A stretch of DNA of 64,000 nt from a virus (Duplodnaviria > Heunggongvirae > Uroviricota > Caudoviricetes): the IMG/VR virus record IMGVR_UViG_3300031555_002005; one strand, given 5' to 3'. The translations under genes and the position numbers were made by a program. The notes below the pieces were generated by a model. That model saw nothing but the letters and a program-made list of their open reading frames with translations. It ran no database searches and was not told where the DNA came from. Every line of letters begins with the position of its first letter. Positions within the stretch are counted from its first letter, which is position 1. Shown one piece after another: positions 1,179 through 62,092 of this stretch.

Positions 1179-1195
1179 ACAATACAAAATTAACG
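1179..1195 (+). promoter_or_regulatory. ACAATACAAAATTAAT box copy (leader/gene-end type)
   Basis: acaatacaaaattaacg directly 5' of RBS GGGAGG of the RT gene. Confidence 0.6.
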
Positions 1196-1207
1196 GGAGG
1201 TGTAAAC

Positions 1208-2467
1208 ATGGATATTCTATTGAAGAAGTTCTTTGAAAAAGAACGATGGGAACAGGCACTTGAAACTGGTGTAGATAAGCACATTGACAAGGGAGAATTG
1301 AGAAAGCTTACATCTCCCGAAGTTAGACTTGCTTTGTATAGTGCAATTGTTAACGACAACTATGAGATTGCCCCGCCACATCAAGTACAGATTCCCAAAG
1401 ATAACGGAGACATGAGAATTGTATATGTCAATGAAAATGTTGACCGTATCTTCTTGTCTATTGTGAACAATCTTTTCTTTGAAATGTTCCCTGAGTTTGT
1501 GCATAAAAGCTGTAAGTCATATCAGTCTGGTATTGGCTGTGGCAAGATTGTACAGGAAGTTTCAAGAGAGATGGTTAAGGTAAACAGCAAGATTGTTGGC
1601 TTTAAGGCAGATTTAACTAAATACTTTGATACTGTTCCTATTAAGTACATAGATGAAATCTTTGACAGAATGGAAAGCAAAGTTGGTAAGTCCAAAATCA
1701 TTGATGTTGTGCGCAAGTATTATCATGCTGATTTATGCTTTGACTACAACGGAGAGCTTATTGAACATTATCAGTCTTTAAAGCAAGGTTGTGCAGTAGC
1801 AAGCTTCTTGGCTGATGCAGTGCTCTATCCAATCGATAAGGAAATCAGTGACATGGATGTTTACTATGTAAGATATTCTGATGATTTGCTTGTAGTTGGT
1901 AGGTGTTACGATGAAGCTTTTCAGATTTTAAAGGCAATGCTGAAAGAGATGGACATGACTTTGAATCCCAAGAAAGTAGAAACTGTTTGCAAAGACAGAT
2001 GGGTTAAATTCCTTGGTTTTAATATCAAAGGAAGCCAGATTACGCTTTCCAAGCAGCGTGTTAAGTCTTTCCAAAAGGAGATTGAAGCACGAACTATTAA
2101 GCAGCGCAAAACTTCTATGGAAAGAGCCATCAACCAAGTGAATAACTATCTCTATAAAGGAGATGGAACTTATTCTTGGGCGACATCTGTGTTACCTATT
2201 ATCAATGTAGAAAAAGACATTGATTCTTTGAATGAATTTGTCATGGATGCAATCAGAGCGTGTGCTACTGGTAAGAAAAAGATTGGAGGTCTGGGAAGTG
2301 TAAACAGCAAAGAAGACTATACAATTCTGCGTGGCACTGGCAAGAATGTGAGCGCAAACAGAGACAAGACTGAAAAGGAAATTGACGGTTTCCTAAGCTT
2401 AAGGTGCATGAGAAACGCTATTCTTACAAACCGAAGTGTATATGAGACTTTGGTAAGAAGTATGTAA
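1208..2467 (+). CDS. reverse transcriptase, stand-alone (class unassigned)
   Basis: 419 aa; RT motifs RIVYV, ADLTKYFDTV, LKQGCAVASF, YVRYSDDLLVV (YxDD), LNPKKVE, FLGF; no En/maturase domain seen. Confidence 0.9.
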   Translation: MDILLKKFFEKERWEQALETGVDKHIDKGELRKLTSPEVRLALYSAIVNDNYEIAPPHQVQIPKDNGDMRIVYVNENVDRIFLSIVNNLFFEMFPEFVHKSCKSYQSGIGCGKIVQEVSREMVKVNSKIVGFKADLTKYFDTVPIKYIDEIFDRMESKVGKSKIIDVVRKYYHADLCFDYNGELIEHYQSLKQGCAVASFLADAVLYPIDKEISDMDVYYVRYSDDLLVVGRCYDEAFQILKAMLKEMDMTLNPKKVETVCKDRWVKFLGFNIKGSQITLSKQRVKSFQKEIEARTIKQRKTSMERAINQVNNYLYKGDGTYSWATSVLPIINVEKDIDSLNEFVMDAIRACATGKKKIGGLGSVNSKEDYTILRGTGKNVSANRDKTEKEIDGFLSLRCMRNAILTNRSVYETLVRSM

Positions 2468-2492
2468 TCAAAGTTGTAATGCAGCAATAAAT

Positions 2493-2622
2493 TGCAAGGC
2501 AACCGAATTCAACTATCTTCCGTCCACCGGCATATCAGAGGAGATACCCAGCTCGCTGTCGCTCCGCTGGAGTATCGCCTCGATCATGCAGGCGAACAGA
2601 AGCTAATATGAAGCAAATAAAG
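2493..2622 (+). ncRNA. RT-associated structured RNA unit U1
   Basis: 5' box TGCAAGG-N7-ATTCAA, 3' box ATATGAAGCAAATAAAG; internal helices cttc/gaag, gaggagatac/gtatcgcctc, ccagc/gctgg. Confidence 0.55.
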
Positions 2623-2670
2623 AAATGCATCGTGGTTGTGAGCAATTTAATTGGCAGTGCGGCCATAGAT

Positions 2671-2793
2671 TGCAAGGTAATTAAATTCAATGACGCAGCA
2701 TACAATTCAGAAATTATGATCTTACTTGCGTGCTATCTCACGCCATAAGATCATAATCTTCTGGCCAATGCTGCATATATGAAGCTATTAAAG
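2671..2793 (+). ncRNA. RT-associated structured RNA unit U2
   Basis: Same boxes (TGCAAGG..ATTCAA / ATATGAAGCTATTAAAG); helices gcagcat/atgctgc, attatgatctta/taagatcataat, gcgtg/cacgc. Confidence 0.6.
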
Positions 2794-2843
2794 TAACGCA
2801 CCAATATTATGAGCAATCTACATTTGGAGTATACCAAAAGAAA

Positions 2844-2967
2844 TGCAAGGCAGTTAAATTCAATACCCTGCAATTGATAAGCCCTAATATGAGGCTCCTT
2901 CAGGGTATCCCCTGAAGCTGCCTCATCTGATGGCTTCCAATCTCAGGGTTACATGAAACATCTAAAG
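2844..2967 (+). ncRNA. RT-associated structured RNA unit U3
   Basis: Boxes TGCAAGG..ATTCAA / ACATGAAACATCTAAAG; helices accctg/cagggt, atgaggc/gcctcat, cttcaggg-TATC-ccctgaag. Confidence 0.6.
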
Positions 2968-3018
2968 TTATATACCGAAACTGTTGAGCATCTTATATTT
3001 TATAAAGGAGGTAAATCA

Positions 3019-5098: not shown

Positions 5099-5776
5099 AT
5101 GAAACAAGAAAAAGACTTTACAATGAGCAGACAGGAATACATAGATTTTCTTGCAAACAAAAGCAATGAAATCAATATGGGAAATAAGAACAGCAAGACT
5201 GGCGCAGCTTGTTTGAATCTTGCATTTCCTGTGGCTGTATGTCGTGAAGATGCACCTTGTAAGGCAACTTGCTATGCATGTAAAGGATGTCAGACTATGG
5301 CAAATGTGCAGGCAGCTTACTACAGAAATCTGAGACTGTATCATGATGATCCTGATAATTTCTTTGAACAGGTTTACTGCAAGGTAAAGTTCTCTGGACT
5401 ACCCAAAGTGAGACTGTTTGATAGTGGCGATTTTCCTGATGCAGACTTCTTGGTAAGGCTTGTGGATCTGTGTAAGAAAACTCCTGACACTAAGTATATG
5501 GCATTTACTAAGAAGTATGAGATTGTTAATGATTACATTGACAAGAATGGAGAGCTGCCTGAAAACCTTAACATTATATTCTCTGCATGGGACAAGCTTT
5601 GGGAAGTACCTAATCCTCATGGACTTGGTATGGCCTATGTGGATTTTAATGATAAGAGGTTGAATGCTGAATGGCCTAAAAACGCATTTATATGCCCCGG
5701 CAGAGCATCTACTTGTTCCGCTTGTGGCGCTTGCTGGTCTAAGAGACTTAAGGCAGTTGTGTTTCATCAGCACTAA
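5099..5776 (+). CDS. Cys-rich protein, possible Fe-S/radical-SAM-like (CX3CX2C)
   Basis: Start moved to ATG 5099 (RBS GGAGG); motif C-KAT-C-YA-C plus C-terminal CPGRASTCSACGAC. Confidence 0.7.
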   Translation: MKQEKDFTMSRQEYIDFLANKSNEINMGNKNSKTGAACLNLAFPVAVCREDAPCKATCYACKGCQTMANVQAAYYRNLRLYHDDPDNFFEQVYCKVKFSGLPKVRLFDSGDFPDADFLVRLVDLCKKTPDTKYMAFTKKYEIVNDYIDKNGELPENLNIIFSAWDKLWEVPNPHGLGMAYVDFNDKRLNAEWPKNAFICPGRASTCSACGACWSKRLKAVVFHQH

Positions 5777-5792
5777 CAATACAAAATTAATG
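5776..5792 (+). promoter_or_regulatory. ACAATACAAAATTAAT box copy
   Basis: acaatacaaaattaatg immediately after stop of 5099..5776. Confidence 0.6.
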
Positions 5793-5857: not shown

Positions 5858-6043
5858 ATGGGAAATAAAATCATTGAACTAACAAAAGTTAATGATGACC
5901 ATACTTGTCTTATTTGTTGCAAAAATGACGCAACAATTAAAATGAAAATCAATCGACTGGTGCTTGACGATAGTGTTACAAGTTTTTCAATTTGTGATGA
6001 TTGTCTTGCAAAGATGCAAAAGGATATTGAGACCTGCGAGTAA
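5858..6043 (+). CDS. zinc-ribbon small protein
   Basis: CxxC..CxxC pattern; in-frame ATG 5858 after RBS-like GAGGTG. Confidence 0.6.
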   Translation: MGNKIIELTKVNDDHTCLICCKNDATIKMKINRLVLDDSVTSFSICDDCLAKMQKDIETCE

Positions 6044-6065
6044 GTGGGTCTCTTATTTTGTGATT

Positions 6066-6082
6066 ACAATACAAAATTAATG
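6066..6082 (+). promoter_or_regulatory. ACAATACAAAATTAAT box copy
   Basis: acaatacaaaattaatg upstream of RBS of 6109 ORF. Confidence 0.6.
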
Positions 6083-6108
6083 AAATGACGATTTGGTGAG
6101 GTAATAAA

Positions 6109-6946: not shown

Positions 6947-6966
6947 ATATAAATGGAGGGATATTA

Positions 6967-8115: not shown

Positions 8116-8144
8116 TTGACAATCCAAAATTAATGTAGTATAAT
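8116..8144 (+). promoter_or_regulatory. sigma70-type promoter with box in spacer
   Basis: TTGACA-aatccaaaattaatgta(17)-TATAAT. Confidence 0.75.
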
Positions 8145-8625: not shown

Positions 8626-9044
8626 TGAGCGAAAGAGAGAATTTTATTGTCGTCAATGGTCAAAAATATTATACCGGAACTGTTTTTCTGATTGATTTTC
8701 ATGGTAAGGTACAAGAGGCATCTTTTGTCTGCACTGTTGTCAAGACAAATAGAGTTCGATGTAAACTTGCTAACTCTTACTGGTTTATACATGCTGACGA
8801 TTTTCGCAAAAGAATTGTTGAGATCACAGATAAGGTTGATTCCAGTGTGCACATGCCCGTTACCAAAACAATGAAAGACACTGAGATTGGCAGCCTGTTT
8901 ATTGGCTGGCTGTGGTATATTTTTCTTATGGCAATTAGCACGATTTTTAAAAATGCAATTGGACTGTGGTGTTTTATTTCTTGGGTGTTTTTTACTTGGA
9001 GAGCTAAGAAAATAAAAGAGGAGGGGACTTACATTGAGTGGTAG
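8625..9044 (+). CDS. membrane-anchored hypothetical protein
   Basis: ATG overlaps stop (TAATG), RBS GGAGGA; C-terminal hydrophobic helices. Confidence 0.7.
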   Translation: MSERENFIVVNGQKYYTGTVFLIDFHGKVQEASFVCTVVKTNRVRCKLANSYWFIHADDFRKRIVEITDKVDSSVHMPVTKTMKDTEIGSLFIGWLWYIFLMAISTIFKNAIGLWCFISWVFFTWRAKKIKEEGTYIEW

Positions 9045-10008
9045 ACTTGAAAAAGAAAGACAAATCGAACAGCAGGTCATGAAAAAACTTGACTCTATGC
9101 CTTCTATCTTAACAGACTATTATTATAGTTTAATTGGTGCAGGCAAATCATATAGAACTGCAAAAGTATATATAGAAAATGTAATTCAGTTTGTAAAATT
9201 TACATTTGGAAAAAATATTAAAGAAGACTTTTATTCTAGTGTGAACGCAATCCATATCAATAGATATATTGCTTCTCTGAGAACAAAGACTGTAAAAGGA
9301 AAAACGGAGCGCACATCTGATAGTCACAAAACATTAAATTGGTCTTCTTTAAATTCGTTTTTTCAATTCTTGGTTCCAGATTATATTTCCACAAACCCTG
9401 TGGCAAATACAAAAAGACCCAAAATGAAAGATAATCCAAATGTTACATTCTTGGACACGGAAGAAATGGCAAAAATCTTTAAAAATGTTAAAGAAAAAGC
9501 GAATCCACGAATGTTAAATAGAGATATGTGCCTTTTAAAACTTGGGTTTGCTACGGGCTTACGTATTTCTGCAATAGTACAAATTGATATTGATGATTTA
9601 GATTTAAAACGTAATCAAATCAGAATTACAGAAAAGGGAGATCATGACGATTATGTGATTATAGGAGATAATCTTAAAGCGCAAGTTGAACTGTGGCTAA
9701 AAGACAGAGAGGAATATTTTAGTGATGTAAACAGTAATGCTCTGTTTGTTTCGCAAGAAAAGAATAGACTTAGCGCACGATCTGTTAAGGATTTAATGGA
9801 TAAATATACACTTGGCGCAACTGATAAAAAGGTTACACCTCATGTAATGCGTCACTCTTGTGCGACAAATTTGTATGAAAAAACTGGAGATATTTATCTG
9901 TGTGCAAGACAGTTACATCATAAAAATGTATCTACAACACAGAGATATGCTGAGCTGTCTAAAGAGAAACAGAAAAAGGCGGCGAATATTCTTGATGACA
10001 TGATTTGA
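9034..10008 (+). CDS. int: tyrosine recombinase / phage integrase
   Basis: GLRISAI, HVMRHSCATNLY, TTQRYAE (R..HxxR..Y catalytic set); TTG start after GAGGAGGGG. Confidence 0.88.
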   Translation: MSGRLEKERQIEQQVMKKLDSMPSILTDYYYSLIGAGKSYRTAKVYIENVIQFVKFTFGKNIKEDFYSSVNAIHINRYIASLRTKTVKGKTERTSDSHKTLNWSSLNSFFQFLVPDYISTNPVANTKRPKMKDNPNVTFLDTEEMAKIFKNVKEKANPRMLNRDMCLLKLGFATGLRISAIVQIDIDDLDLKRNQIRITEKGDHDDYVIIGDNLKAQVELWLKDREEYFSDVNSNALFVSQEKNRLSARSVKDLMDKYTLGATDKKVTPHVMRHSCATNLYEKTGDIYLCARQLHHKNVSTTQRYAELSKEKQKKAANILDDMI

Positions 10009-10038: not shown

Positions 10039-10067
10039 TTGACAAACACGTGTTCGCAATGTATAAT
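10039..10067 (+). promoter_or_regulatory. sigma70-type promoter
   Basis: TTGACA-N17-TATAAT (TG-extended). Confidence 0.75.
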
Positions 10068-10090: not shown

Positions 10091-11005
10091 ATGTATCAAT
10101 CTGAAATGAAAGAGGGTTTTATAAAAGACTATATGAGATCAAGGGTGGTTGCTCGAACGTCTTTATATAGTTTATTCAGAAAAACAGAACCATTTGAAGA
10201 AGAGAATAAAAAGGATTGCAGTCAGTTCAATCAAGATGAAGCTTTATCTATGTACACAAAATTTAAAGCAAAATCAATTTATGTGCTTCTTAATTATAAT
10301 ACAATTTTAAAAGCTTATTGTGCATGGAGACACTATTACCATAAAGAAAAAGTTACGGACTCATATGACAATACTACTATAGAATTACTGAAACCATGTG
10401 TCCCAGAAGATAGTAATAAGTTTTTATCAAGAGAAGAAATAATAGAAATAGAAGATCAATTATATAATTGGACCGACAAGGCAATTGTAGAGTGTTTATG
10501 GGAAGGTATTTCTGGACCAAGTATGATTGACTTGGTGAATATCAATAGATCTATGGTCGATTTTAAGGAAAAGGAAATGTACTTTTCAGACGGAAGAATA
10601 ATTGAATTAACTGATAGGTTATGTGAGCTTTTAAACAAGACATTTGATGAAATTGAGTATATGTGCTACGGAGAATCATTAAGAGTTAAAAAGCTTGTTG
10701 GAATTGGCAATCTATACAAAGAAAGAGATAATGCGCATGCAACAGATTCAAATGATAAATATTTCAGATGGGTGTATAGGAAAGTACAAAATTTTAGAGA
10801 TCATGTTGGTATCCCCGGACTAACCATGAAAAATATACACATATCTGGTATGTATCATTATTTGTGTCAAGGGATGCAAGAAACTGGGCTTGACCTGAAA
10901 AGCTTCTTGAAATCTCAAGATGGTGCGGAATTGGCTTGTAAATATGGTTTTCATTCAGATAGTTACGTAGATAATTTAACACACCGCTTTAAAGATTTTG
11001 TTTAA
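10091..11005 (+). CDS. hypothetical protein (304 aa), possibly integrase-associated DNA-binding
   Basis: RBS GAAGGGG; function guess only from position next to int. Confidence 0.75.
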   Translation: MYQSEMKEGFIKDYMRSRVVARTSLYSLFRKTEPFEEENKKDCSQFNQDEALSMYTKFKAKSIYVLLNYNTILKAYCAWRHYYHKEKVTDSYDNTTIELLKPCVPEDSNKFLSREEIIEIEDQLYNWTDKAIVECLWEGISGPSMIDLVNINRSMVDFKEKEMYFSDGRIIELTDRLCELLNKTFDEIEYMCYGESLRVKKLVGIGNLYKERDNAHATDSNDKYFRWVYRKVQNFRDHVGIPGLTMKNIHISGMYHYLCQGMQETGLDLKSFLKSQDGAELACKYGFHSDSYVDNLTHRFKDFV

Positions 11006-11375: not shown

Positions 11376-11392
11376 ACAATACAAAATGAATG
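11376..11392 (+). promoter_or_regulatory. ACAATACAAAATTAAT box copy (variant)
   Basis: acaatacaaaatgaatg at about +17 of promoter 11331. Confidence 0.55.
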
Positions 11393-11657: not shown

Positions 11658-11674
11658 ACAATACAAAATTTATG
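11658..11674 (+). promoter_or_regulatory. ACAATACAAAATTAAT box copy (variant)
   Basis: acaatacaaaatttatg upstream of RBS of 11694 ORF. Confidence 0.55.
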
Positions 11675-14049: not shown

Positions 14050-15198
14050 ATGGCAATAGCAAGAAGTGGAAGCACAATTAAACCAAAGCTAAACATGTTA
14101 TTTTATGGTGAGCCAGGTGTTGGTAAGTCAACTATGGCGCTACAGCTGGCTTATTTTAAGAGAGAGGATGGAACTCCTTTTAGATTACTAGTTCTAGATG
14201 CAGAGAGTGGCGGCTGTGAAGAATGCCTAGCTGAACTAGAAGAGAACGGTATTGATTTGAGAAACGTATATATTGTATATAGCCAGTCTCAGAAGGAAAT
14301 TAAGGAATACATTGCAAAGGTAAGAGATCACGAGCCATTCTACGAATTGGATGAAGATGGTAATGAAACTGATGAGATCGTTAAGGATGCTTATGGTGAA
14401 GACTTCTACCCTGATGCGCTAGTTCTAGATGGTACTTCTGTTCTAAAGCTAGTTAGCTCTCAGAGCCTACTGGATCTATCTAGAAAGAGAAATAAGATTA
14501 AGGCTGAAAAGTCTGGCGCAACTGCAGAAGAGAAGTTTGTTGCAGTAAGTAATGCAAACCTAGAGCTAAAGGACTACTCCCAGCTGAATTACTCAGGACA
14601 GGATCTAGTTCTTTCTCTGATGGCATGTGGTGTGCATGTTATTATCACTGCAAGAGAAAAGGACGAGACTGTTTCCGTCAAAGGAGACGATGGTAAGATT
14701 ACTAGCGTTGCTACTGGCAAGCGTGTGTATGATTCCTTTAAGGGAATGGATTACAACACTAAGACTCTAGTCAGATTGTATAGAGATGATCTAGGTCAGG
14801 TGTGTGCCGAAGTTATTAAGGATAGAACTCGTGTTTACTCTGCAGGTGAGATTATTGAGAATCCTTCCTTGCTTGCTTGGGAAAGTGTTATTCAGAAGGG
14901 TAAGGGCAAGGCAGATTTTACTTTGAGAAATGACTTGGACAAGGCAATTGACACCGATCAGGCAATCTTTGAAAAGCAGATGATGGGTAGTAATGCTGCG
15001 GAAGCAGAGGATAAATCTGTAGCTGCTGGTTCAGCTGATAGTTTGAGAGCAACAATCAAGAGTGCTGTTGCAAAGCTAAGTAATGAAGGTAAGCAGGAAA
15101 TGAAAAAGAAGCTGACTGAAGCAAATCTTCCTACGAATTTTACAAAGGTAACTGATGTAAATGTCCTTCAGCAGATTCTAAATATTGTTTCTGAATAA
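14050..15198 (+). CDS. RecA-like AAA ATPase (Sak4/AAA_24-like)
   Basis: Walker A GEPGVGKST; Walker B-like LVLDG. Confidence 0.6.
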   Translation: MAIARSGSTIKPKLNMLFYGEPGVGKSTMALQLAYFKREDGTPFRLLVLDAESGGCEECLAELEENGIDLRNVYIVYSQSQKEIKEYIAKVRDHEPFYELDEDGNETDEIVKDAYGEDFYPDALVLDGTSVLKLVSSQSLLDLSRKRNKIKAEKSGATAEEKFVAVSNANLELKDYSQLNYSGQDLVLSLMACGVHVIITAREKDETVSVKGDDGKITSVATGKRVYDSFKGMDYNTKTLVRLYRDDLGQVCAEVIKDRTRVYSAGEIIENPSLLAWESVIQKGKGKADFTLRNDLDKAIDTDQAIFEKQMMGSNAAEAEDKSVAAGSADSLRATIKSAVAKLSNEGKQEMKKKLTEANLPTNFTKVTDVNVLQQILNIVSE

Positions 15199-15214
15199 CA
15201 GTATGAAATTAATG
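15198..15214 (+). promoter_or_regulatory. ACAATACAAAATTAAT box copy (variant)
   Basis: acagtatgaaattaatg overlapping stop of 14050..15198. Confidence 0.45.
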
Positions 15215-17547: not shown

Positions 17548-18603
17548 TTGGAACAAATCAATAATAATTGGTGTGTTTATATGCACACCAATATCATAAA
17601 TAATAAAAAATATATTGGAATTACGTGCAAGAAGCCAGAACATAGGTGGAATGAAGGCAAAGGATATAAACATAATAGATATTTTTGGAATGCAATTCAA
17701 AAATATGGTTGGGAAAATTTTAAACATGAAATTGTTTCATTTAACCTCTCTCACGATGATGCTTGTAAAATGGAAAAATATTTAATCGCTTATTATAGCT
17801 CGAATAATTCGATATATGGTTATAATCTTACAAGTGGTGGAGATAGTGGGTTTTTACATACTGAAGAAACAAAAGAGAGAATAAGACAAGCTAATAGTGG
17901 TATAAGCAATGCAATGTACGGTATTTCTCCAAAAGAACGAATGGATGAAGATACGTACAAACAATGGCTTTATAAGCAACAGACAAATAAACCACACGGT
18001 GAAGATAATCCACAATATGGTGTATCTCCAAAAGAGAGAATGGATGAAACAACATACCAAGAATGGTTGTACAAACAGAAAAATAACAAGCCAAAAGGGA
18101 AAGACCATCCTATGTATGGAGTGTCGCCACAGGAGCGAATGGACGAAGATACATACAAAAATTGGTTGGAAAAAATGAAAAATCCAGCCAAAAGCATATC
18201 TGTTAAGTGCATTGAAACAGATAAAATATATAAAAGTGCAAGAGAAGCAGAAAGAGAAACAGGAATTGCACACAGTTCAATTGTGAAGTCTTGTATGTCA
18301 GAAGATCATTCGGTAATTGCTGGCGGATTTCATTGGTGTTTGGGCAGCGATAATTTTTCTATGGAGGATCTTGGCTTAGAATATAAAGGTAAGAGGTACA
18401 TTAGGTGCATAGAGACTAATCGTATTTATAAAACAGCCAGAGAAGTTAAGAGAGAAACAGGTTTGGATGACTCATCCATTAACAAATGTTGCAAGGGATA
18501 TTATTTCAAAACAGTTGGTGGCCTTCATTGGGAATATATTTATTTGCTTCCAGAACAATACGAAGAATGGTGCAAAACCAACAACTTAACAACACAAAAT
18601 TAA
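17548..18603 (+). CDS. GIY-YIG homing endonuclease with repeats
   Basis: WCVYMHTN..KKYIGIT..RW..GYNLTSGG; three repeats YGxSPKERMDExTY. Confidence 0.85.
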   Translation: MEQINNNWCVYMHTNIINNKKYIGITCKKPEHRWNEGKGYKHNRYFWNAIQKYGWENFKHEIVSFNLSHDDACKMEKYLIAYYSSNNSIYGYNLTSGGDSGFLHTEETKERIRQANSGISNAMYGISPKERMDEDTYKQWLYKQQTNKPHGEDNPQYGVSPKERMDETTYQEWLYKQKNNKPKGKDHPMYGVSPQERMDEDTYKNWLEKMKNPAKSISVKCIETDKIYKSAREAERETGIAHSSIVKSCMSEDHSVIAGGFHWCLGSDNFSMEDLGLEYKGKRYIRCIETNRIYKTAREVKRETGLDDSSINKCCKGYYFKTVGGLHWEYIYLLPEQYEEWCKTNNLTTQN

Positions 18604-18605
18604 TA
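18589..18605 (+). promoter_or_regulatory. ACAATACAAAATTAAT box copy (variant)
   Basis: acaacacaaaattaata encodes C-terminal TQN-stop of the GIY-YIG gene. Confidence 0.5.
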
Positions 18606-18951: not shown

Positions 18952-18968
18952 ACAATACAAAATTAATA
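18952..18968 (+). promoter_or_regulatory. ACAATACAAAATTAAT box copy
   Basis: acaatacaaaattaata 2 nt after -10. Confidence 0.6.
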
Positions 18969-21708: not shown

Positions 21709-21725
21709 ACAATACAAAATTAACG
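21709..21725 (+). promoter_or_regulatory. ACAATACAAAATTAAT box copy
   Basis: acaatacaaaattaacg 17 nt after -10, directly 5' of RBS. Confidence 0.6.
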
Positions 21726-22079: not shown

Positions 22080-22108
22080 TTGACAAATAATGGAAAGTGT
22101 GCTATAAT
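22080..22108 (+). promoter_or_regulatory. sigma70-type promoter (first of tandem pair)
   Basis: ccccTTGACAaat-N17-TATAAT. Confidence 0.75.
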
Positions 22109-22201: not shown

Positions 22202-22218
22202 ACAATACAAAATTAATG
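22202..22218 (+). promoter_or_regulatory. ACAATACAAAATTAAT box copy
   Basis: acaatacaaaattaatg. Confidence 0.6.
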
Positions 22219-22617: not shown

Positions 22618-22634
22618 ACAATACAAAATTAATG
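22618..22634 (+). promoter_or_regulatory. ACAATACAAAATTAAT box copy
   Basis: acaatacaaaattaatg in the leader of a tRNA operon (no CDS follows). Confidence 0.6.
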
Positions 22635-27110: not shown

Positions 27111-27127
27111 ACAATACAAAATTAATA
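27111..27127 (+). promoter_or_regulatory. ACAATACAAAATTAAT box copy
   Basis: acaatacaaaattaata, 2 nt before a tRNA 5' end. Confidence 0.6.
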
Positions 27128-28257: not shown

Positions 28258-28274
28258 ACAGTACAAAATTAATA
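28258..28274 (+). promoter_or_regulatory. ACAATACAAAATTAAT box copy (variant)
   Basis: acagtacaaaattaata in leader of a non-coding array. Confidence 0.55.
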
Positions 28275-34503: not shown

Positions 34504-34520
34504 ACAATACAAATTTAATG
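34504..34520 (+). promoter_or_regulatory. ACAATACAAAATTAAT box copy (variant)
   Basis: acaatacaaatttaatg. Confidence 0.55.
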
Positions 34521-35694: not shown

Positions 35695-35723
35695 TTGACA
35701 ATACAAAATTAATGTGTTATAAT
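35695..35723 (+). promoter_or_regulatory. sigma70-type promoter with box as -35/spacer
   Basis: TTGACAatacaaaattaatgtgtTATAAT. Confidence 0.85.
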
Positions 35724-37133: not shown

Positions 37134-37550
37134 GTGGATTTGACAAAGAAAGACAGAGCATATTTTAATATTGCAAAAGAAGTATCTAAGCTGTCTGATT
37201 TTCCTAGAGTTCAAATTGGTGCGTGTGCAGTATACAAGCATAAAGTAATCAGCACAGGTTGTAACTCTATGCGCACAAGCCCTCTTCAGAAGAAATATAA
37301 TCAGTACAGATTTACGGTGGAAACTCCACACACTTGCCACGCCGAAACAAGTTGCCTTAAGCCGCTTATTGGGCGCAAGGATATCGATTTTAGAAATGTA
37401 GATATTTACATATTCAGGTCTTATAAAAACGGCGAACTGGGGCTTGCACGGCCTTGTGAGAGCTGTTTTAACTTGATAAAAGACCTTGGAATCAGAAATA
37501 TTTATTACTCTAATGAGGGCGGGTTCTCTCATGAAGAGATTATATATTAA
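37134..37550 (+). CDS. dCMP / cytidine deaminase family zinc enzyme
   Basis: HAETSCL ... PCESCFNLI (H-A-E, PCxxC). Confidence 0.85.
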   Translation: MDLTKKDRAYFNIAKEVSKLSDFPRVQIGACAVYKHKVISTGCNSMRTSPLQKKYNQYRFTVETPHTCHAETSCLKPLIGRKDIDFRNVDIYIFRSYKNGELGLARPCESCFNLIKDLGIRNIYYSNEGGFSHEEIIY

Positions 37551-37566
37551 CAATACAAAATTAATA
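37550..37566 (+). promoter_or_regulatory. ACAATACAAAATTAAT box copy
   Basis: acaatacaaaattaata overlapping stop of deaminase gene. Confidence 0.6.
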
Positions 37567-39909: not shown

Positions 39910-39926
39910 ACAGTACAAAATGAATG
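39910..39926 (+). promoter_or_regulatory. ACAATACAAAATTAAT box copy (variant)
   Basis: acagtacaaaatgaatg. Confidence 0.5.
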
Positions 39927-43225: not shown

Positions 43226-43242
43226 ACGATACAAAATTAATG
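43226..43242 (+). promoter_or_regulatory. ACAATACAAAATTAAT box copy (variant)
   Basis: acgatacaaaattaatg upstream of LAGLIDADG gene. Confidence 0.5.
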
Positions 43243-44954: not shown

Positions 44955-44971
44955 ACAACACAAAATTAATT
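44955..44971 (+). promoter_or_regulatory. ACAATACAAAATTAAT box copy (variant)
   Basis: acaacacaaaattaatt then RBS AAGGAG. Confidence 0.5.
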
Positions 44972-46964: not shown

Positions 46965-46993
46965 TTGACAATACAAAATTAATGTGGTATAAT
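46965..46993 (+). promoter_or_regulatory. sigma70-type promoter with box as -35/spacer
   Basis: TTGACAatacaaaattaatgtggTATAAT. Confidence 0.85.
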
Positions 46994-47021: not shown

Positions 47022-48749
47022 TTGAAATATAAACTAATAGGAAGCAATGATACAAATAATATAATTAAAACAATATTAAACAACAGAGGAATAGAAGACT
47101 GGAATGGGTACATTAACCTTAGTAAAGCTCCACGAGACACATATGATAACTTGGATAATATTGCAAAAGCTGTTTTTGCGTTTGATTTGCACTATGTACA
47201 GAAACATCCAATTGCAATTCTTGTGGACAATGACGTTGATGGTGTTTGTAGTAGTACATTAATGTACAGGTTTATTAAGACACTTGATCCAGATTACGAT
47301 GTTAGAATGTATGTTCACAGAAAAAATAAGAGTCATGGACTAGATGGAGACTTCGACATTGACAGTGATATTAAGTTGTTAATTGTGCCAGATGCAGGAT
47401 CCAACGATGTTGCAGAGCATAAAAGACTGTATTACGAGCTTGGAATTGATTGTTTGTGTTTAGACCATCACCAAGTAACTGTTGATACAAGCAAGAGCCC
47501 AGCGATCATTGTTAACAATCAAACAAGTGATAGATATGAAAACAAAGGATGCTGTGGCGCATCAGTGACACTAGAATTCTGCAGAGCACTAGAAGAATTT
47601 TATTGGGAAGACGTATGCGACGATCTGTTAGACCTTGCCGCTGTGGCAAATGTATGTGACATTATGCCAATCACTGAATTTGAAACTAGAGCAGTAATTA
47701 ATGAGGGCTTGTCTAATATAAACAACAAGATGCTACAAGAAATCATTAAAGCTCAAGACTTCTCCATGAAAGGTATTGTGAGTCCACATACAGTAGGTTT
47801 TTATGTTGGCCCTCTAATCAATGCTTTTATTCGCATGGCAACTTTTGAAGAGCGTCAACTACTTGTTCGAGCATTTTGCGAAGATGAGTCTGAAACTTTT
47901 TCGTACACAAAACGTGGAGAATCACTACCAACTGAAGAGAACATTTATGAACATGTTGTTCGACTAATGAAGTCATATAAGGGCAAACAAGACCGACAGA
48001 GACAAAATACTTTACCTACGCTTGTAAACAAGGGTAAAGAGTGTGATGGTAACGTTGCACTTATTGATGCCACTGGCATTATTGACACATCTCTAACAGG
48101 AGTTGTGGCAATCAAGGTTTCAGAATCTTTAAACAAGCCAACATTACTTTTACAACAAAGAAATGACAAAGTGTATGGAGGAAGTGGCAGAGTATTTGAT
48201 AACTGTCCAATAGAAGACTTCAGAGCACTTGTTGATGAATGTCCTTACACCACCTTGGCACAAGGGCACCCAGGTGCATTCGGAATTGAGATTCCAGTTG
48301 AGAATATAGGACTTGCAAGAGATTGGCTTAACGAGCGGCTTGCGAATGTTGATATGGATAAAGTCTACAACGTTGACTTCGAAATCAACGCAGAAAATCT
48401 TTCTATTCCAATGTTCCAAGCGCTTGACCAAAACAAAACACTTTGGGGACATAACGTTAACGAACCTTTGTTCGCAATTAATAATCTACACATATCTTCT
48501 GAGAACTCTAGAATCTGTGGCAAAAGTCAAAATACAATTCAGATTTATGATGAAGTAGCAAACGTAAAGTATGTTATGTTCTTCTGCAATGGAGCAGAGG
48601 AACTGTATCAATGGATTAGTAATAACTGGGGAGATGATAAAGCAGTTATTACTGTTATTGGTACACTTGGATTGAGCTTGTATGAAGGTAAGCTAGATAG
48701 TCAAGTTATTATTAAGGATGCAAGAATAGAAAAAACAATACAAAATTAA
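47022..48749 (+). CDS. RecJ-like DHH-family ssDNA exonuclease
   Basis: DNDVDGVCS, VPDAGSND, LDHHQV (DHH); start likely TTG 47022 (RBS AAAGGAG) because track ATG 46998 lies at the predicted TSS. Confidence 0.8.
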   Translation: MKYKLIGSNDTNNIIKTILNNRGIEDWNGYINLSKAPRDTYDNLDNIAKAVFAFDLHYVQKHPIAILVDNDVDGVCSSTLMYRFIKTLDPDYDVRMYVHRKNKSHGLDGDFDIDSDIKLLIVPDAGSNDVAEHKRLYYELGIDCLCLDHHQVTVDTSKSPAIIVNNQTSDRYENKGCCGASVTLEFCRALEEFYWEDVCDDLLDLAAVANVCDIMPITEFETRAVINEGLSNINNKMLQEIIKAQDFSMKGIVSPHTVGFYVGPLINAFIRMATFEERQLLVRAFCEDESETFSYTKRGESLPTEENIYEHVVRLMKSYKGKQDRQRQNTLPTLVNKGKECDGNVALIDATGIIDTSLTGVVAIKVSESLNKPTLLLQQRNDKVYGGSGRVFDNCPIEDFRALVDECPYTTLAQGHPGAFGIEIPVENIGLARDWLNERLANVDMDKVYNVDFEINAENLSIPMFQALDQNKTLWGHNVNEPLFAINNLHISSENSRICGKSQNTIQIYDEVANVKYVMFFCNGAEELYQWISNNWGDDKAVITVIGTLGLSLYEGKLDSQVIIKDARIEKTIQN

Positions 48750-48751
48750 TA
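48735..48751 (+). promoter_or_regulatory. ACAATACAAAATTAAT box copy
   Basis: acaatacaaaattaata encodes C-terminal TIQN-stop of the RecJ-like gene. Confidence 0.6.
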
Positions 48752-55965: not shown

Positions 55966-55982
55966 ACAGTACAAAATTAATG
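55966..55982 (+). promoter_or_regulatory. ACAATACAAAATTAAT box copy (variant)
   Basis: acagtacaaaattaatg 2 nt after -10. Confidence 0.55.
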
Positions 55983-57627: not shown

Positions 57628-57644
57628 ACAATACAAAATTAATA
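57628..57644 (+). promoter_or_regulatory. ACAATACAAAATTAAT box copy
   Basis: acaatacaaaattaata directly after helicase stop. Confidence 0.6.
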
Positions 57645-57660: not shown

Positions 57661-58314
57661 ATGGGAAAAATAATTGATATGACCGGATGGGTTATGAGTG
57701 AACATGGTGTTCCTGATAGCAAATGGAAAGTTATAGAGCGGTCTAAATCTTTAGACGGGAAAAATAGTTTTTGGTTATGCGAATGCTCCTGTGATAATCA
57801 TACAAGAAAAATTATAGCACGGCATAGTCTTGTAAGCGGAAATAGTAAGTCTTGTGGGTGTTTGTCAGCAGAAGAAACAAGTAAGAGAATAAGTACTCAT
57901 AAAATGTCTGGATCTCGCCTTCATAATATATGGAAAAGCATGAAAGAAAGATGCTATAACATTAATCACAACCAATATAAAGACTATGGCGGAAGAGGAA
58001 TTGCTATATGCGAAGAATGGAAAGATGATTTTATTTCTTTTTATAACTGGGCAACAAGTAATGGTTATAGTGACAATTTGACAATAGATAGGATTGATAA
58101 TAATAAAAATTACTGTCCTGAAAATTGTAAATGGAGCACAAGAAAAGAACAAAATAATAATCAGCGAACTAATCATTTGCTTACATATAACAATAAAACA
58201 CAAACAATGGCGCAGTGGGCGGAAGAGATTGGATTGAATCCACGTACATTGCAAACACGTATTTCAAGAGGATGGAATGTACAAGATGCATTGTTCGGAA
58301 AAGCACAAAATTAA
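57661..58314 (+). CDS. HNH-type homing endonuclease with C-terminal DNA-binding repeats
   Basis: DRIDNNKNYCPENCKWSTRKEQ; C-terminus ends AQN-stop inside a partial box copy. Confidence 0.75.
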   Translation: MGKIIDMTGWVMSEHGVPDSKWKVIERSKSLDGKNSFWLCECSCDNHTRKIIARHSLVSGNSKSCGCLSAEETSKRISTHKMSGSRLHNIWKSMKERCYNINHNQYKDYGGRGIAICEEWKDDFISFYNWATSNGYSDNLTIDRIDNNKNYCPENCKWSTRKEQNNNQRTNHLLTYNNKTQTMAQWAEEIGLNPRTLQTRISRGWNVQDALFGKAQN

Positions 58315-58333
58315 TGAGAGGGAGTGATATAAA

Positions 58334-61300: not shown

Positions 61301-61675
61301 CAGAGTCTATCTATGTTTATCACATTTAATCCTTTGAAAGAAGCCTATGATCTTATTGGCACCGAGTGGGATGATGTTCCAAGTGGCAACAAAGCAGTTG
61401 TGCCATGTGTTATTGTAGATATCAAACGTAAAAAGGATAGAAATAATAATCAGTTTGCATATTTAGATTTGTGTATTAATGACCGCATTCTAGAAGCAAC
61501 TATTTGGAGTAAACAGCTTAAAGAATATGCTGAGCTTATCACAAAGGGTAGTTGTATTTGCATTCTTGGTAAAAAAGAAGAAGAACATTTATTTGTTGAG
61601 AAGATTAAGCCGTATCAGGTTTGGCTTAACAAGATCAAAAAGCTTAAAGCAAAAGCTAATATTTATAACTATTAA
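58334..61675 (+). CDS. dnaE: DNA polymerase III alpha subunit (DnaE-type, PHP domain)
   Basis: 1113 aa; FVNLHVHSAQGSLLDS PHP start; RGSGANCL; FNRGHAVAYS; C-terminal OB-like. Confidence 0.92.
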   Translation: MSFVNLHVHSAQGSLLDSILTIDQMVKYAVDNKQPAIALSDHGTMHGFVDQVELCNKHGIKPIVACEIYEVDNYLEKQDTKEYKQPRYHLLLIVKTQQGLKNLFKIVSEASTTGFYGKPRISIPWIKDNNLGDGIICLTACQAGRVSRYLEAERYKEAEEYVKLLKDTFDYVSLEIQSHPTEQQLACNTLIFNFARYMKMPYVITTDAHMLSADQLDSHSIFVEIGEGREAGEIYSGCHLQNEKDVYKYLGNWNLDRVIQAGIDETIKITNMIDDGIDYGLGHGSITPVVDVPAEYSSHADYLHYLVFQTFNEKFGWMSKEEQEIRRERLERELPVINALDYTDYFIMLYMIAKEADKRGLPRGYSRGSGANCLCLFMLNVTQVDSVRWTLDFSRFANMGRIGSLADFDWDISKRRRKEIIEITEELFGKENVAPIATFNTLSTKVAIKDIGKVLNEKESSPYFGQIPYSVRDEVAKMIPTVKTLSDLGEAEEKDVLLRELVGKNEKLDTIHKQFPMWFKYVMDLEGLPKSRGRHASATLITPHPVIEHMPLCLDNDKNVMAQLEMHAAMDKLGYCKMDYLGLENLDIIDDALKNAGLTWDNVNINHLNIDDKKVFDEVYNSGNTIGIFQFESAEARAMSIAAHVDNIEDVIAVNASNRPGTKNSFPDYCKNKLHPESIESIHKDLDTLFKTTHSILLYQEDALHLFAYAGFPEEKQDVARRAIGKKKKDVMASLYEEFKNGLVAKQWSEKQIQDVWALLAKQAEYSFNRGHAVAYSLLSYLTAWLKVYYPVQFMTALLTAKSDRTEKLSAIINDCNRMGIQVLPPKINESKQSFTGNAAKREILFGFGAVKGIGDSVISKIIENQPYKSFDDYVDKVQDKTATIALIKANAFPTKDRMKLMQKYAKSLYPEKEYKPVSSLPTKARLLLDWDIDTSDYMIGKKVDKERVLNIYNQKRKEIFDADQKQKFKAFMAEFKCKYAEDEFLWEFQSLSMFITFNPLKEAYDLIGTEWDDVPSGNKAVVPCVIVDIKRKKDRNNNQFAYLDLCINDRILEATIWSKQLKEYAELITKGSCICILGKKEEEHLFVEKIKPYQVWLNKIKKLKAKANIYNY

Positions 61676-61685
61676 TTGTTAAGTC

Positions 61686-61707
61686 AAGAGGGAATTACCA
61701 CCCTCTT
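61686..61707 (+). terminator. hairpin after dnaE, overlapping next -35
   Basis: aagaggg-N8-ccctctt. Confidence 0.5.
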
Positions 61708-61734
61708 GACAATACAAAATTAATGTGATATAAT
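61706..61734 (+). promoter_or_regulatory. sigma70-type promoter with box as -35/spacer
   Basis: TTGACAatacaaaattaatgtgaTATAAT. Confidence 0.85.
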
Positions 61735-61766
61735 ATATCCGACTACAATGAAAGGAAGGTATTACA

Positions 61767-62090
61767 ATGGAAGATGAAATGAAGACCATTGAAGATCAGG
61801 AAAATGATAAGCCCGTTCTAGACGACGATGCTCTAAAGGGAGCAATTGAGGAACAGCTTTCTAAGATTCGAAGACAGTCTATGATTTTAGGCTTTAGAGT
61901 AAGCTGTCAGACTGTTCTAGACAAGATCACCGCATTTGAAAGATCCCCTGGCAGCAAGTCTAACAATGATCATAAGAGACTTATTAAGGATATTAAAAAG
62001 TTTGTAGAAACTGGACTTGCTCGTAAGATGAATGAGAATGGTGAAATCGAAGTTCCAGAAGAAACTGAATCTGAAACAGTACAAAATTAA
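61767..62090 (+). CDS. hypothetical acidic protein (107 aa)
   Basis: RBS AAAGGAAGG; ends TVQN-stop inside box copy. Confidence 0.75.
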   Translation: MEDEMKTIEDQENDKPVLDDDALKGAIEEQLSKIRRQSMILGFRVSCQTVLDKITAFERSPGSKSNNDHKRLIKDIKKFVETGLARKMNENGEIEVPEETESETVQN

Positions 62091-62092
62091 TG
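62076..62092 (+). promoter_or_regulatory. ACAATACAAAATTAAT box copy (variant)
   Basis: acagtacaaaattaatg spanning stop of 61767 ORF, then RBS GGAGGG. Confidence 0.55.

Follow-up and report, generated by a model that had tools for sequence, protein, structure and literature searches.

The 64,000-nt stretch of DNA analysed here (the window) comes from a large uncultivated phage. It encodes two neighbouring proteins related to tyrosine recombinases, and its genes are interspersed with copies of a 16-base box, ACAATACAAAATTAAT. The two genes and the promoter between them are as follows.

9034..10008, + strand: XerD-like tyrosine recombinase with the catalytic motifs TGLR, HxxR and Y kept, directly upstream of the MrpR-like gene
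10039..10067, + strand: perfect sigma-A promoter without a box, driving the MrpR-like gene
10091..11005, + strand: MrpR/SroF-like protein with a tyrosine-recombinase fold, the candidate box-binding repressor

Twelve copies of the box are exact, against an expectation of 0 from 100 shuffles; the count rises to 26 with up to 2 mismatches (0.41 expected) and to 28 with up to 3, and this enumeration against shuffled sequence bears out the approximately 28 copies claimed in a preliminary description. Every window copy lies on the + strand, the same strand as the genes, and the window's 19 exact 11-nt box cores are all located outside CDS. Conservation has sharp edges at 16 nt, with a weak G/A preference at the next base. 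In most cases 13-20 nt separate the end of the box from a start codon, and the box also precedes tRNAs and an ncRNA array, as noticed earlier (tRNA-Met at 22698, tRNA-Gln at 27129 and the tRNA-like array). Other early observations also hold: four proteins end in QN because the box supplies their last codons, CAA AAT TAA (stops ending at 18603, 48749, 58314 and 62090), and ORF calls start at the box ATG (e.g. 11390, 22216, 55980 and 62090). In 5 further genes, the stop codon abuts the start of the box.

A box is present at 13 of the window's 15 perfect sigma-A promoters, a number that none of 20,000 random placements in intergenic DNA reached (maximum 7). The two exceptions are the promoter of the MrpR-like gene at 10039 and a second one at 22080. 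The boxes found at promoters are listed here, together with the latter exception.

8116..8144, + strand: promoter heading an operon whose last gene is the XerD-like gene
8119..8134, + strand: box (1 mismatch) in the -35 overlap and spacer of perfect promoter 8116-8144
11376..11391, + strand: box (1 mismatch, TGAAT tail), 17 nt past the -10 of promoter 11331-11359 (11/12 matches)
11658..11673, + strand: box (1 mismatch) straight after a TATAAT-like hexamer, without a good -35
18952..18967, + strand: exact box starting 2 nt past the -10 of perfect promoter 18923-18950
21709..21724, + strand: box (1 mismatch), 18 nt past the -10 of perfect promoter 21663-21691
22080..22108, + strand: box-less perfect sigma-A promoter, a tandem duplicate 79 nt upstream of the box-bearing promoter 22159
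22202..22217, + strand: exact box, 15 nt past the -10 of perfect promoter 22159-22187
22618..22633, + strand: exact box, 15 nt past the -10 of perfect promoter 22575-22603, at the head of a tRNA operon
27111..27126, + strand: exact box, 18 nt past the -10 of perfect promoter 27065-27093; tRNA-Gln is 2 nt downstream
28258..28273, + strand: box (1 mismatch), 18 nt past the -10 of perfect promoter 28213-28240, at the head of the tRNA-like array
34504..34519, + strand: box (1 mismatch) starting 2 nt past the -10 of perfect promoter 34475-34502
35698..35713, + strand: exact box in the -35 overlap and spacer of perfect promoter 35695-35723; primase-like gene
39910..39925, + strand: box (2 mismatches, TGAAT tail) straight after the TATACT of a weak promoter
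44955..44970, + strand: box (1 mismatch), 16 nt past the -10 of perfect promoter 44912-44939
46968..46983, + strand: exact box in the -35 overlap and spacer of perfect promoter 46965-46993; RecJ-like gene
55966..55981, + strand: box (1 mismatch) starting 2 nt past the -10 of perfect promoter 55937-55964
61709..61724, + strand: exact box in the -35 overlap and spacer of perfect promoter 61706-61734

At promoters, the box occupies three fixed positions, all within the footprint of RNA polymerase, namely the spacer, -5 to +11, and about +9 to +27. Of the window's 28 boxes, 14 to 16 lie within the footprint of the host sigma-A RNA polymerase. At the spacer-type sites the context first described is correct; the coordinates given for them (8116, 35695, 46965 and 61706) are those of the -35, and the box begins 3 nt later. 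The box 2 nt past the -10 is confirmed at 18952, 34504 and 55966, the promoter at 39910 being weaker, and the placement 15-18 nt past the -10 is found at 21709, 22202, 22618, 27111, 28258 and 44955, and likewise at 11376. The promoter and box at 46965-46993 are preceded by a terminator (46917-46943). The box is conserved among metagenomic phages that form a large family with genomes of 150-170 kb. The window and 80 loci with the large terminase gene (TerL) at their centre contain 72 near-consensus promoters in total; 43 of these bear a box, and its discrete offsets from the end of the -10 are -25/-24 (19 promoters), +2/+3 (8) and +15 to +18 (14).

The other 12 of the 28 window boxes have no recognisable sigma-A promoter, as had been stated for those at 1179, 5776, 6066, 37550, 48735, 57628 and 62076.

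86..101, + strand: box (2 mismatches, ACAGTACAAAGTTAAT), no sigma-A promoter
1179..1194, + strand: box (1 mismatch) abutting the preceding stop codon; a reverse transcriptase starts 13 nt on
5776..5791, + strand: exact box whose first A is common to the preceding TAA stop
6066..6081, + strand: exact box 14 nt past terminator 6029-6052, at the head of gene block 6109-7502
15198..15213, + strand: degenerate box (3 mismatches) sharing the preceding stop codon; terminator 15214-15237 follows immediately
18589..18604, + strand: box (1 mismatch) supplying the stop codon of gene 17581-18603
37550..37565, + strand: exact box sharing the preceding stop codon; the next start is 14 nt on
43226..43241, + strand: box (1 mismatch) ahead of a LAGLIDADG endonuclease gene
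48735..48750, + strand: exact box supplying the stop codon of the RecJ-like gene; a NadR-like gene starts 17 nt on
57628..57643, + strand: exact box abutting a helicase stop codon; an HNH-like gene is next
58300..58315, + strand: box with degenerate 5' part (AAAGCACAAAATTAAT) supplying the stop codon of the HNH-like gene; DnaE starts 18 nt on
62076..62091, + strand: box (1 mismatch) supplying the stop codon of gene 61767-62090; ThyX starts 13 nt on

The gene block 6109-7502 ends at a terminator (7512-7535). The orthologue of the degenerate box 15198 in a relative (L054, 5203) has 1 mismatch, and the orthologues of box 18589 in L012 and L054 are spacer-type promoters. Approximately 10% of the boxes of the family have a stop codon before them and an intrinsic terminator after them.

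It had been proposed that the box may act in RNA, like the RegA-type translational operators, or as a processing signal. In such a reading the box would be a RegA-like translational operator or enhancer, or it would be cleaved so as to part cistrons from one another and to shorten leaders or terminator hairpins. The strict sense orientation and the usual proximity of a start codon are in line with action in RNA, as are the hairpins often found beside the box and its location in the 5' leader, where it lies 15-18 nt past the -10, and between cistrons. The box RNA is unstructured, which can be read either way. However, the boxes embedded in the spacers of 19 distinct promoters are upstream of the start of their own transcripts, and the resulting messages carry no box. 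Moreover, tRNAs lie downstream of some boxes, one at just 2 nt, all 16 nt are conserved even where the adjacent promoter would transcribe the 3' part only, inverted copies exist in a promoter spacer, and the window encodes no complementary RNA. The RNA-level readings are further disfavoured by the terminators that directly follow about 10% of the boxes. Function as an RNA-level site is, on this evidence, very improbable.

Even less credible is a box without function of its own, as a by-product of promoter-cassette duplication or as a PeSL-like micro-homology linker for gene shuffling. One 300-aa gene cassette does have a box on either side (L126/L130, 13640-14670), and several homing-endonuclease genes adjoin boxes, but of 75 large indels only 2 are bounded by a box at each end. 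Furthermore, box copies are near-identical while their flanks diverge to 65% identity, the box variant switches in concert over whole clades, and box 18589 has been retained after loss of its promoter. The functionless by-product is already largely refuted by this pattern of conservation.

The protein encoded at 10091-11005 matches Pfam MrpR_N_CB with 48.6 bits (cut-off 27), and a phmmer search against PDB returns 9rd5 (E 2.8e-11), YopR 8bj6 (5.5e-9) and MrpR 8a0a (1.5e-8); BLASTP against YopR of SPBc2 gives E 2e-11. PF00589 has no match in this protein and matches its XerD-like neighbour. The spacer of its promoter (10039-10067) contains a Cheo/LexA-like CAAAC-N4-GTTCG. A MrpR-like gene is present in 39 loci; these (738 kb) hold 240 forward and 14 reverse boxes, and the reverse ones are located in the spacer of the MrpR-like gene's own promoter. 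This promoter contains in the relatives an inverted, weakened box, whose sequence tracks the box variant of the clade (TTAAT, TGAAT, TGATT). Clades with MrpR-like proteins 45-86% identical have a ..TTAAT box tail. In the clade at 68-71%, the tail is ..TGAAT genome-wide and the MrpR-like promoter holds ATGAAT/ATTCAT, and in the clade at 29-34% the tail is ..TGATT and the promoter holds ATCATTTTGT, which is the inverted ACAAAATGAT.

Taken together, the three footprint positions, the inverted spacer copy, the MrpR/SroF homologue and its exceptional, co-varying promoter favour the earlier suggestion of a DNA operator acting by occlusion or as a roadblock, and the box is probably the operator of the MrpR/SroF-like repressor encoded at 10091-11005. 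We infer that this protein binds the box and represses by binding, and that the system would be used for lysogeny or early shut-off. The MrpR-like protein, which has a catalytically degenerate tyrosine-recombinase fold, would read one asymmetric site as a monomer. Because the box lies within the sigma-A RNA polymerase footprint, the bound repressor would keep the polymerase from initiating at, or escaping from, nearly all strong early promoters. In relatives these include the promoter of the gene for the phage's YonO-like RNA polymerase, where a sigma-A promoter is followed by a box. In the clade of the window the box-less promoter of the repressor gene would escape control, and in other clades its weakened inverted box could provide autoregulation. 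The 12 promoter-less boxes, which border on stop codons, terminators or ribosome-binding sites, may be extra repressor sites that stop read-through transcription, in the style of mycobacteriophage stoperators.

The evidence of position and orientation for a DNA-level site would fit equally the operator of another protein, such as the XerD-like (SroD-like) recombinase, an unrecognised small phage protein or a host factor, with the MrpR-like gene as only one of the targets. Many proteins of the window have no Pfam match, and SPbeta repression reportedly requires SroD and SroE as well, as Brady et al. are said to have found in 2023. This explanation appears unlikely, given that the MrpR-like gene alone has a promoter that is exceptional and tracks the box variant, and that MrpR/SroF homologues are the proteins experimentally shown to bind such elements.

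The family encodes a YonO-like RNA polymerase of ~943 aa with a DFDGD motif (Pfam RdRP PF05183, E 2.4e-14; tblastn hits to SPbeta yonO, E 3e-19, and to phage c-st, 36.5% identity). From this gene arises a serious rival, absent from the preliminary description, in which the box is the promoter of this single-chain two-barrel polymerase. Transcripts would then begin with or close to the invariant A, which is position 13 of the box, or with the first base past the box, and the overlap with sigma-A promoters would give early expression by the host enzyme, later expression by the phage polymerase, and mutual occlusion. The promoter sequence of YonO is still to be defined in the literature (PMC5467207). 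Other phage two-barrel polymerases, those of P23-45 (gp96/gp64), depend on short AT-rich motifs that are strongly conserved and precede the start sites, and the box is similarly compact, strongly conserved, AT-rich, sharply bounded and co-oriented with the genes directly downstream, abutting the ribosome-binding site. The block 6066-7502 lies between two terminators without another promoter, and several clades carry boxes ahead of packaging and structural genes. Since YonO pauses little and lacks a flap domain, a box followed by a terminator could be read through. Against this, most clades have the inverted box in the MrpR-like promoter spacer, tracking the clade variant; the window's nearest relative keeps 1 intact late-region box, the orthologous late sites having decayed; and T often follows the box in relatives. 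There is also no obvious reason why a phage promoter would occupy three fixed positions in the sigma-A footprint. YonO of SPbeta has a single start site, in a region without box-like sequence, and the element repeated in that phage is MrpR's. We consider this possibility rather unlikely.

Several observations do not sit easily with a MrpR-like repressor as the protein that binds the box. At the window's 12 promoter-less boxes there is no sigma-A promoter for it to repress, and a roadblock seems redundant at the ~10% of family boxes placed between stop codon and terminator. The box is nearly invariant, yet the MrpR-like protein diverges down to 45% identity. The LexA-like box at the window-clade promoter is not what one expects of a lysogeny-maintaining repressor, and the family's YonO-like polymerase needs promoters somewhere. 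A temperate lifestyle of the family is unproven, because no integrated or isolate-borne prophage of it was found.

MrpR (YopR, SroF) is the master repressor of Bacillus phage SPbeta, a monomer with a recombinase fold whose multi-copy asymmetric element, SPBRE, is built into promoters. In SPbeta, ~10 promoter regions have a 15-bp SPBRE to which MrpR binds, and PaimR and PyosX are promoters that it represses (PMC10516654). A further study describes SroF as a monomer on a long asymmetric operator with many sites genome-wide (10.1101/2025.11.27.690993). The SPBRE copies that we extracted from SPBc2 include the -35 overlap, a 17-nt spacer and TATAAT at yonP and yorE, lie between the -10 and the ribosome-binding site at yopV, and are all co-oriented with the downstream gene, the minus-strand copy included. 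The box is likewise multi-copy, non-palindromic, co-oriented with the downstream gene and located in the same two promoter intervals, and in both systems the element is found at the promoter of a YonO-type polymerase gene (yonP-yonO in SPbeta). The likeness extends to the homologous MrpR-type protein (Pfam MrpR_N_CB; PDB 8a0a, 8bj6, 9rd5), its location beside a second tyrosine recombinase, as for yopP (sroD) and yopR, and the SPbeta-like replication genes around it (DnaE, RecJ). However, identity to YopR is only ~25%, and the position-weight matrices of box and SPBRE are not significantly similar (633 of 2000 ungapped and 29 of 300 one-gap column shuffles reach the observed score). The box is ~5x denser (28 per 64 kb vs ~12 in the 78 kb of SPBc2 scanned), its conserved length is 16-17 nt vs 15-26 nt, and nearly half of its copies are promoter-less and abut stop codons or terminators. 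The LexA-like box at the repressor promoter of the window's clade is another difference, and the arbitrium genes, Sar antirepressor and lysogeny of SPbeta are not demonstrated for the box phage. Because the box is most likely the site of a MrpR/SroF-related repressor, the system would broaden a class of phage gene switch that was first described only recently, and would not form a class of its own. What is unusual is the very dense spread of sites, promoter-less ones included.

Dispersed asymmetric operators are known from two other systems. Phage P1, like the box phage, has a large genome with a tyrosine recombinase and an AT-rich operator, that of C1, with a 17-bp consensus and 22 copies (PMC8546580). 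P1 is, however, a proven plasmid prophage of Gram-negative hosts, and no C1 homologue was detected in the box phage. The stoperators of Cluster A mycobacteriophages (L5 gp71, TipsytheTRex) are GC-rich, 13 bp long and bound by a repressor with an HTH and a stoperator domain, unlike the recombinase fold of the box candidate, and the elongation block shown for them is only inferred for the box. They resemble it in being asymmetric, in more than 20 copies, read by a monomeric repressor (as proposed for the box), and placed both at promoters and in short intergenic gaps where they overlap stop or start codons. Their orientation correlates strikingly with the direction of transcription, as does that of the box (PMC9283540).

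The box ACAATACAAAATTAAT occurs in the window in 12 exact copies, where none is expected, and in 26 copies at up to two mismatches, against an expectation of 0.41. Allowing three mismatches gives 28 copies, which agrees with the count of about 28 in the preliminary description and lies far above chance. Information content is high over exactly 16 positions and at background on either side; the site in the form used by the window is ACAATACAAAATTAATG, and variants in other clades end in TGAAT or TGATT. Every box lies on the + strand, as does every credible gene, and none of the 19 exact 11-nt box cores of the window falls within a coding sequence. The box is non-palindromic and, as RNA, structureless, and a minus-strand copy, from which an antisense RNA to it could come, is absent from the window. 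No paper containing ACAATACAAAATTAAT was found in the literature. The contexts that had been listed for the box proved correct when the promoters and gene ends of the window were checked, and the same holds for the proteins ending in ..QN-stop at boxes and for the ORFs wrongly begun at the box ATG. The base directly 3' of the box tends to be G or A in the window; a purine at +1 as a start-site signature was rejected, because relatives often show T there.

Fifteen perfect sigma-A promoters were found in the window (TTGACA-16/17-TATAAT, TG-extended in most cases, and without exception on the + strand), and 13 of them have a box. When 28 boxes were placed randomly in the intergenic DNA (12.2 kb), the maximum was 7 promoter overlaps, and 13 was reached in none of 20000 trials. 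The box takes one of three fixed positions: in position (a) the final three bases of the -35 and 13 of the 17 bases in the spacer belong to it (TTGACAATACAAAATTAATGTGnTATAAT), in position (b) it starts 2 nt past the -10, and in position (c) it starts 15-18 nt past the -10. A bacterial RNA polymerase bound at a promoter covers all three. When the window was combined with 80 related loci that had been fetched independently, 72 distinct near-consensus promoters were counted, and 43 carry the box, at offsets from the -10 end of -25/-24 (19), +2/+3 (8) and +15 to +18 (14). The same pattern of many promoter-located copies is seen in more than 100 related loci. In promoters of the 15-18 nt type, the bases between -10 and box (21691-21708, 27093-27110 and 28240-28257) are semi-conserved, ..ACAnnCAGTTCAAAGGA, and this leader can pair with the first box bases as a 4-bp hairpin (z = -2.15). 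The promoter at 22080 (region 22080-22187) is a tandem duplicate that has kept the leader ..ACAnnCAGTTCAAAGGA and lost the box.

Action in RNA, as a RegA-type translational operator or a processing site, was an option of the preliminary description and fits these positions poorly. Such a site would be expected in the regulated mRNA by the start codon; boxes embedded in a spacer are not transcribed from their own promoter and so are missing from its transcripts, tRNAs and terminators stand 3' of some others, and an inverted copy exists.

Twelve boxes of the window are without a sigma-A promoter. In nine of them the box and the upstream stop codon are in contact: the box either begins with the last base of the stop or contains the stop as the TAA of its positions 12-14. 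Most of the twelve end 13-20 nt 5' of the next start codon, gene starts being those given by a simple ribosome-binding-site rule made for this analysis. In abutting stop codons or ribosome-binding sites they resemble the stoperators of Cluster A mycobacteriophages, which, like the box, are asymmetric, lie in short intergenic gaps and keep one orientation to transcription. The stoperator repressor is of the gp71 type, whereas the candidate binder of the box has a recombinase fold; Pfam and PDB searches among the window proteins gave no gp71-type repressor (HTH plus stoperator domain). The 22 asymmetric 17-bp C1 operators of phage P1 are also reminiscent of the box (PMC8546580).

An exact-match scan of IMG/VR with the box returned 119 loci, many of them on contigs of 150-170 kb that match parts of the window at 64-87% identity. 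Among loci fetched with the large terminase subunit TerL, a choice independent of the box, the gene strand has 229 boxes over 1.37 Mb and the opposite strand a single one. The box stays constant while the flanking sequence diverges freely among relatives. At 18589 the window has kept a box whose orthologues in two related loci (L012 and L054) are spacer-type promoters, the -10 having been deleted in the window. Differences between clades are confined to the 3' end of the box (..TTAAT, ..TGAAT, ..TGATT and ..TTATA/TTATT); they switch in concert throughout the genome, which speaks for a reader of the box sequence that acts in trans. A linker for recombination or shuffling, or a by-product of duplication, was rejected, given that only 2 of 75 large indels are box-ended on both sides and that the conservation pattern is contrary.

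The best candidate for this putative reader is encoded in the window, in the following arrangement:
9034-10008, + strand, bona fide XerD-like recombinase gene
10039-10067, + strand, promoter of the MrpR-like gene
10091-11005, + strand, MrpR-like gene

On the evidence of its matches, gene 10091-11005 is a homologue of MrpR/YopR/SroF with a tyrosine-recombinase fold: the protein matches PF22822 at 48.6 bits (cut-off 27), PDB entries 9rd5 (E 2.8e-11), 8bj6 (5.5e-9) and 8a0a (1.5e-8), and YopR of SPBc2, the SPbeta genome scanned (BLASTP, E 2e-11). It may have lost the recombinase catalytic set: in comparisons at low identity, it has no match to PF00589, reads LWEGISG where its XerD-like neighbour has TGLR, and HxxR was not seen in it. 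The pair, with the recombinase gene directly 5', is much like the adjoining yopP and yopR of SPbeta.

What tells most for an MrpR-like reader is the promoter of the gene itself. Of the two perfect promoters that lack a box in the window's clade, it is one. In a clade whose MrpR-like protein is 45-48% identical to that of the window, the promoter spacer is AAATTAATATTGTA(T/C)TGT, an inverted box weakened at positions 9-10; the clade in which all boxes end in TGAAT has ATATGAATATTCATA in this spacer, and the one with TGATT throughout has ATCATTTTGT, the inverted ACAAAATGAT. This co-variation covers the clades other than TTATA/TTATT, whose MrpR-like gene was not retrieved. The 738 kb surrounding MrpR-like genes contain 240 boxes in forward and 14 in reverse orientation, the reverse ones being the sites in MrpR-like promoters. 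A repressor promoter that alone escapes the common operator, or holds a weaker copy of it, is a classical signature of autoregulation. In the window's clade, the spacer of the MrpR-like promoter includes (at 10044-10057 of the window) CAAACACGTGTTCG, CAAAC-N4-GTTCG, with arms conserved and the central 4 nt variable across relatives, as in the Cheo/LexA box, and by its sequence it looks like a LexA box. A perfect CGAAC-N4-GTTCG also occurs at 48461-48474, inside the RecJ-like gene. As for other regulators, Pfam gave no sigma factor, RNA polymerase or HTH repressor in the window, in a scan that took in 50 small proteins concatenated, where the sole matches were linker artefacts; PDB searches with three large window proteins lacking an assignment gave nothing.

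MrpR is the master repressor of SPbeta and the owner of the repeated element SPBRE (PMC10516654). Its phi3T orthologue SroF acts as a monomer on an asymmetric operator, of which it reads 24/26 bp, and has many operator sites across the genome (10.1101/2025.11.27.690993). Twelve SPBRE copies were extracted from SPBc2 and set against the box positions of the window. At yonP, yorE, yorZ and yosX the sequence is TAGACA + 17 nt + TATAAT, with the element forming the -35 overlap and spacer, which corresponds to position (a); at yopV and yopM it lies between the sigma-A -10 and the ribosome-binding site, corresponding to position (b)/(c). All copies are co-oriented with the gene, including one minus-strand copy at yonP, at the promoter of the yonP-yonO polymerase operon, and likewise the YonO-like gene of the present family is preceded by a sigma-A promoter and then a box. 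The approximately 12 copies (in two pieces of SPBc2, L204 = SPBc2 62001-112000 and L205) give an extended consensus ACAAATACAAAWAATATGTATATA, and most of them make up a promoter's -35 overlap, spacer and -10, a promoter-embedded architecture that the published passages covered do not describe explicitly. Box and SPBRE have ACAA(A)TACAAA in common. Homology between the two sequences was rejected, since column shuffles matched the matrix similarity in 633/2000 ungapped and 29/300 gapped cases, and the shared architecture alone was therefore used as evidence. By protein homology, the box system belongs with MrpR/SroF-SPBRE and probably works like it. Compared with SPBRE, the box has no significant similarity in operator sequence, its copy density is about five-fold higher, nearly half of its sites are promoter-less and stoperator-like in distribution, and the autoregulatory arrangement varies among clades.

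From the site statistics, the three positions, the family conservation and the concerted variants, together with the protein homology, the SPBRE-like architecture and the co-variation of the MrpR-like promoter, we infer that the MrpR-like protein binds the box and represses. It would bind each box as a monomer and, on positions (a)-(c), would block initiation or escape by the host RNA polymerase. Almost all strong early promoters would thus be silenced, and the late programme too, via the YonO-like gene. Promoter-less boxes may be polar roadblocks or provide further sites of occupancy, by analogy with Cluster A stoperators (PMC9283540). The repression may serve to maintain lysogeny or to switch early genes off in the lytic cycle.

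A serious rival, although a rather improbable one, is that the box is the promoter of the family's YonO-like RNA polymerase, a single-chain two-barrel enzyme. Its gene, like most of the comparative evidence, comes from related contigs outside the window, and encodes the motif NGFDFDGD; examples are:
L130, 1468-4299, YonO-like gene
L137, 1388-4162, YonO-like gene
L185, 2831-5653, YonO-like gene

The protein has approximately 943 aa, and in relatives its gene lies some 8 kb 5' of TerL (Pfam RdRP E 2.4e-14; tblastn of SPbeta yonO E 3e-19); it shows 26% identity to SPbeta YonO and 36.5% to phage c-st, and about 1571 homologues are present in the protein collection. The YonO promoter is undefined in the SPbeta literature (PMC5467207), conserved AT-rich motifs serve other phage two-barrel polymerases, and the box is a compact element directly next to ribosome-binding sites. 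Moreover, the gene block 6066-7502 is bounded by two terminators and has no promoter candidate other than the box. Against this reading, 29 of 275 family boxes would fire straight into a terminator that directly follows them, although a polymerase that pauses little, without a flap, might read through. T is frequent directly after the box, and in L164, the window's nearest relative, the boxes of the late region are decayed. An inverted copy that co-varies with the clade lies inside the MrpR-like promoter. Thus, the box is not always gene-directed and kept before late operons, as a polymerase promoter would be. In SPbeta, it is the repressor that uses the repeated element, and the YonO start region (about 60355-60550 of SPBc2, from the primers) is single, unrelated, and has no box-like sequence. 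A box-like site just 5' of yonK, TAAATAGAAAATTATT, was discarded, as its 4 mismatches are at chance level.

It is somewhat less probable still that the box is used twice, being read by the MrpR-like repressor and serving as promoter or loading site of the YonO-like polymerase. The repressor, the YonO-like polymerase and the host sigma-A polymerase would then compete on 16 bp, timing early, late and silent states. If so, no consensus for the promoter of a YonO-type polymerase would have preceded the box. In any case, the boxes are candidate sites for direct testing of YonO-type promoter specificity.

It was only in 2023-2025 that monomeric repressors with a recombinase fold (MrpR/SroF) were described, all of them in SPbeta-like prophages of Bacillus. 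A box read by the MrpR-like protein suggests that the same logic extends to a large and abundant family of uncultivated animal-gut phages of 150-170 kb, and that the operator has spread well past promoters to become a stoperator-like punctuation of the genome. The co-variation of the operator 3' end with repressor clade and autoregulatory site suggests ready-made specificity determinants.

By gene content, the window is assigned to an early/middle region. It encodes a DnaE-type polymerase, RecJ, NAD-dependent ligase, a primase-like protein, helicase, ThyX and NadR/PnuC, and also an RNA-repair set, more than 21 tRNAs, homing endonucleases and a reverse transcriptase. Two genes, the YonO-like one (outside the window) and the MrpR-like one (in the window), tie the family to SPbeta-like phages of Firmicutes. 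No cultured relative was found at DNA level by megablast, and INPHARED contained no box-bearing phage; Clostridium phage Amboise was dismissed as a relative, as it shares DnaE alone and differs in architecture. In a search for an extension beyond the window, the end gene was found only on contigs of 1.2-1.3 kb. No prophage copy was present in 185,579 representative genomes, bar one contig of a metagenome-assembled genome. This family contig (L245, JAFUOX010000026.1, 94 kb) was binned in 'Kiritimatiellae' from roe-deer rectum; the placement is probably a binning artefact, and hints at a ruminant-gut source and not at host identity.

The RNA-repair set (19727-20254, 40124-43200 and 44070-44903) lies beside tRNA arrays and comprises Tpt1/KptA, RNA ligase, an RlaP-like nucleotidyltransferase, a kinase with HD phosphatase, and a Thg1-like protein, which suggests a counter-measure to tRNA-cleaving host defences. 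A tRNA-like array is found at 28270-29330, with further units at 22858-22980, 23451-23601, 28583-28712 and 28725-28852. Units and tRNAs have insertions of about 50 nt (Rfam tRNA matches of 123-151 nt; odd 2-nt anticodons in ARAGORN), and have in common a repeated motif of roughly CAC(A/T)AACAGCAATTTTA. The array is directly 5' of a DUF2828/DUF7788 gene (29354-30907), which we take to be TROVE/Ro60-like, and the units could therefore be Y-RNA-like partners of its product. A reverse transcriptase gene (1208-2467, RVT_1, E 9e-22) has a box on its 5' side and, on its 3' side, 550 nt without a convincing ORF (2468-3018), which could be the RNA region of a retron or diversity-generating element.

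Free-standing homing endonucleases (HNH, GIY-YIG, LAGLIDADG) are numerous in the window, and several are flanked by boxes:
6341-6946, + strand, homing-endonuclease gene
12072-12944, + strand, homing-endonuclease gene
17581-18603, + strand, homing-endonuclease gene
25215-25700, + strand, homing-endonuclease gene
27323-27922, + strand, homing-endonuclease gene
43261-44049, + strand, homing-endonuclease gene
57661-58314, + strand, homing-endonuclease gene

In relatives (L130, about 17050-18330), insertions of approximately 1.25 kb in a late gene, with their own spacer-type promoter, look like mobile introns.
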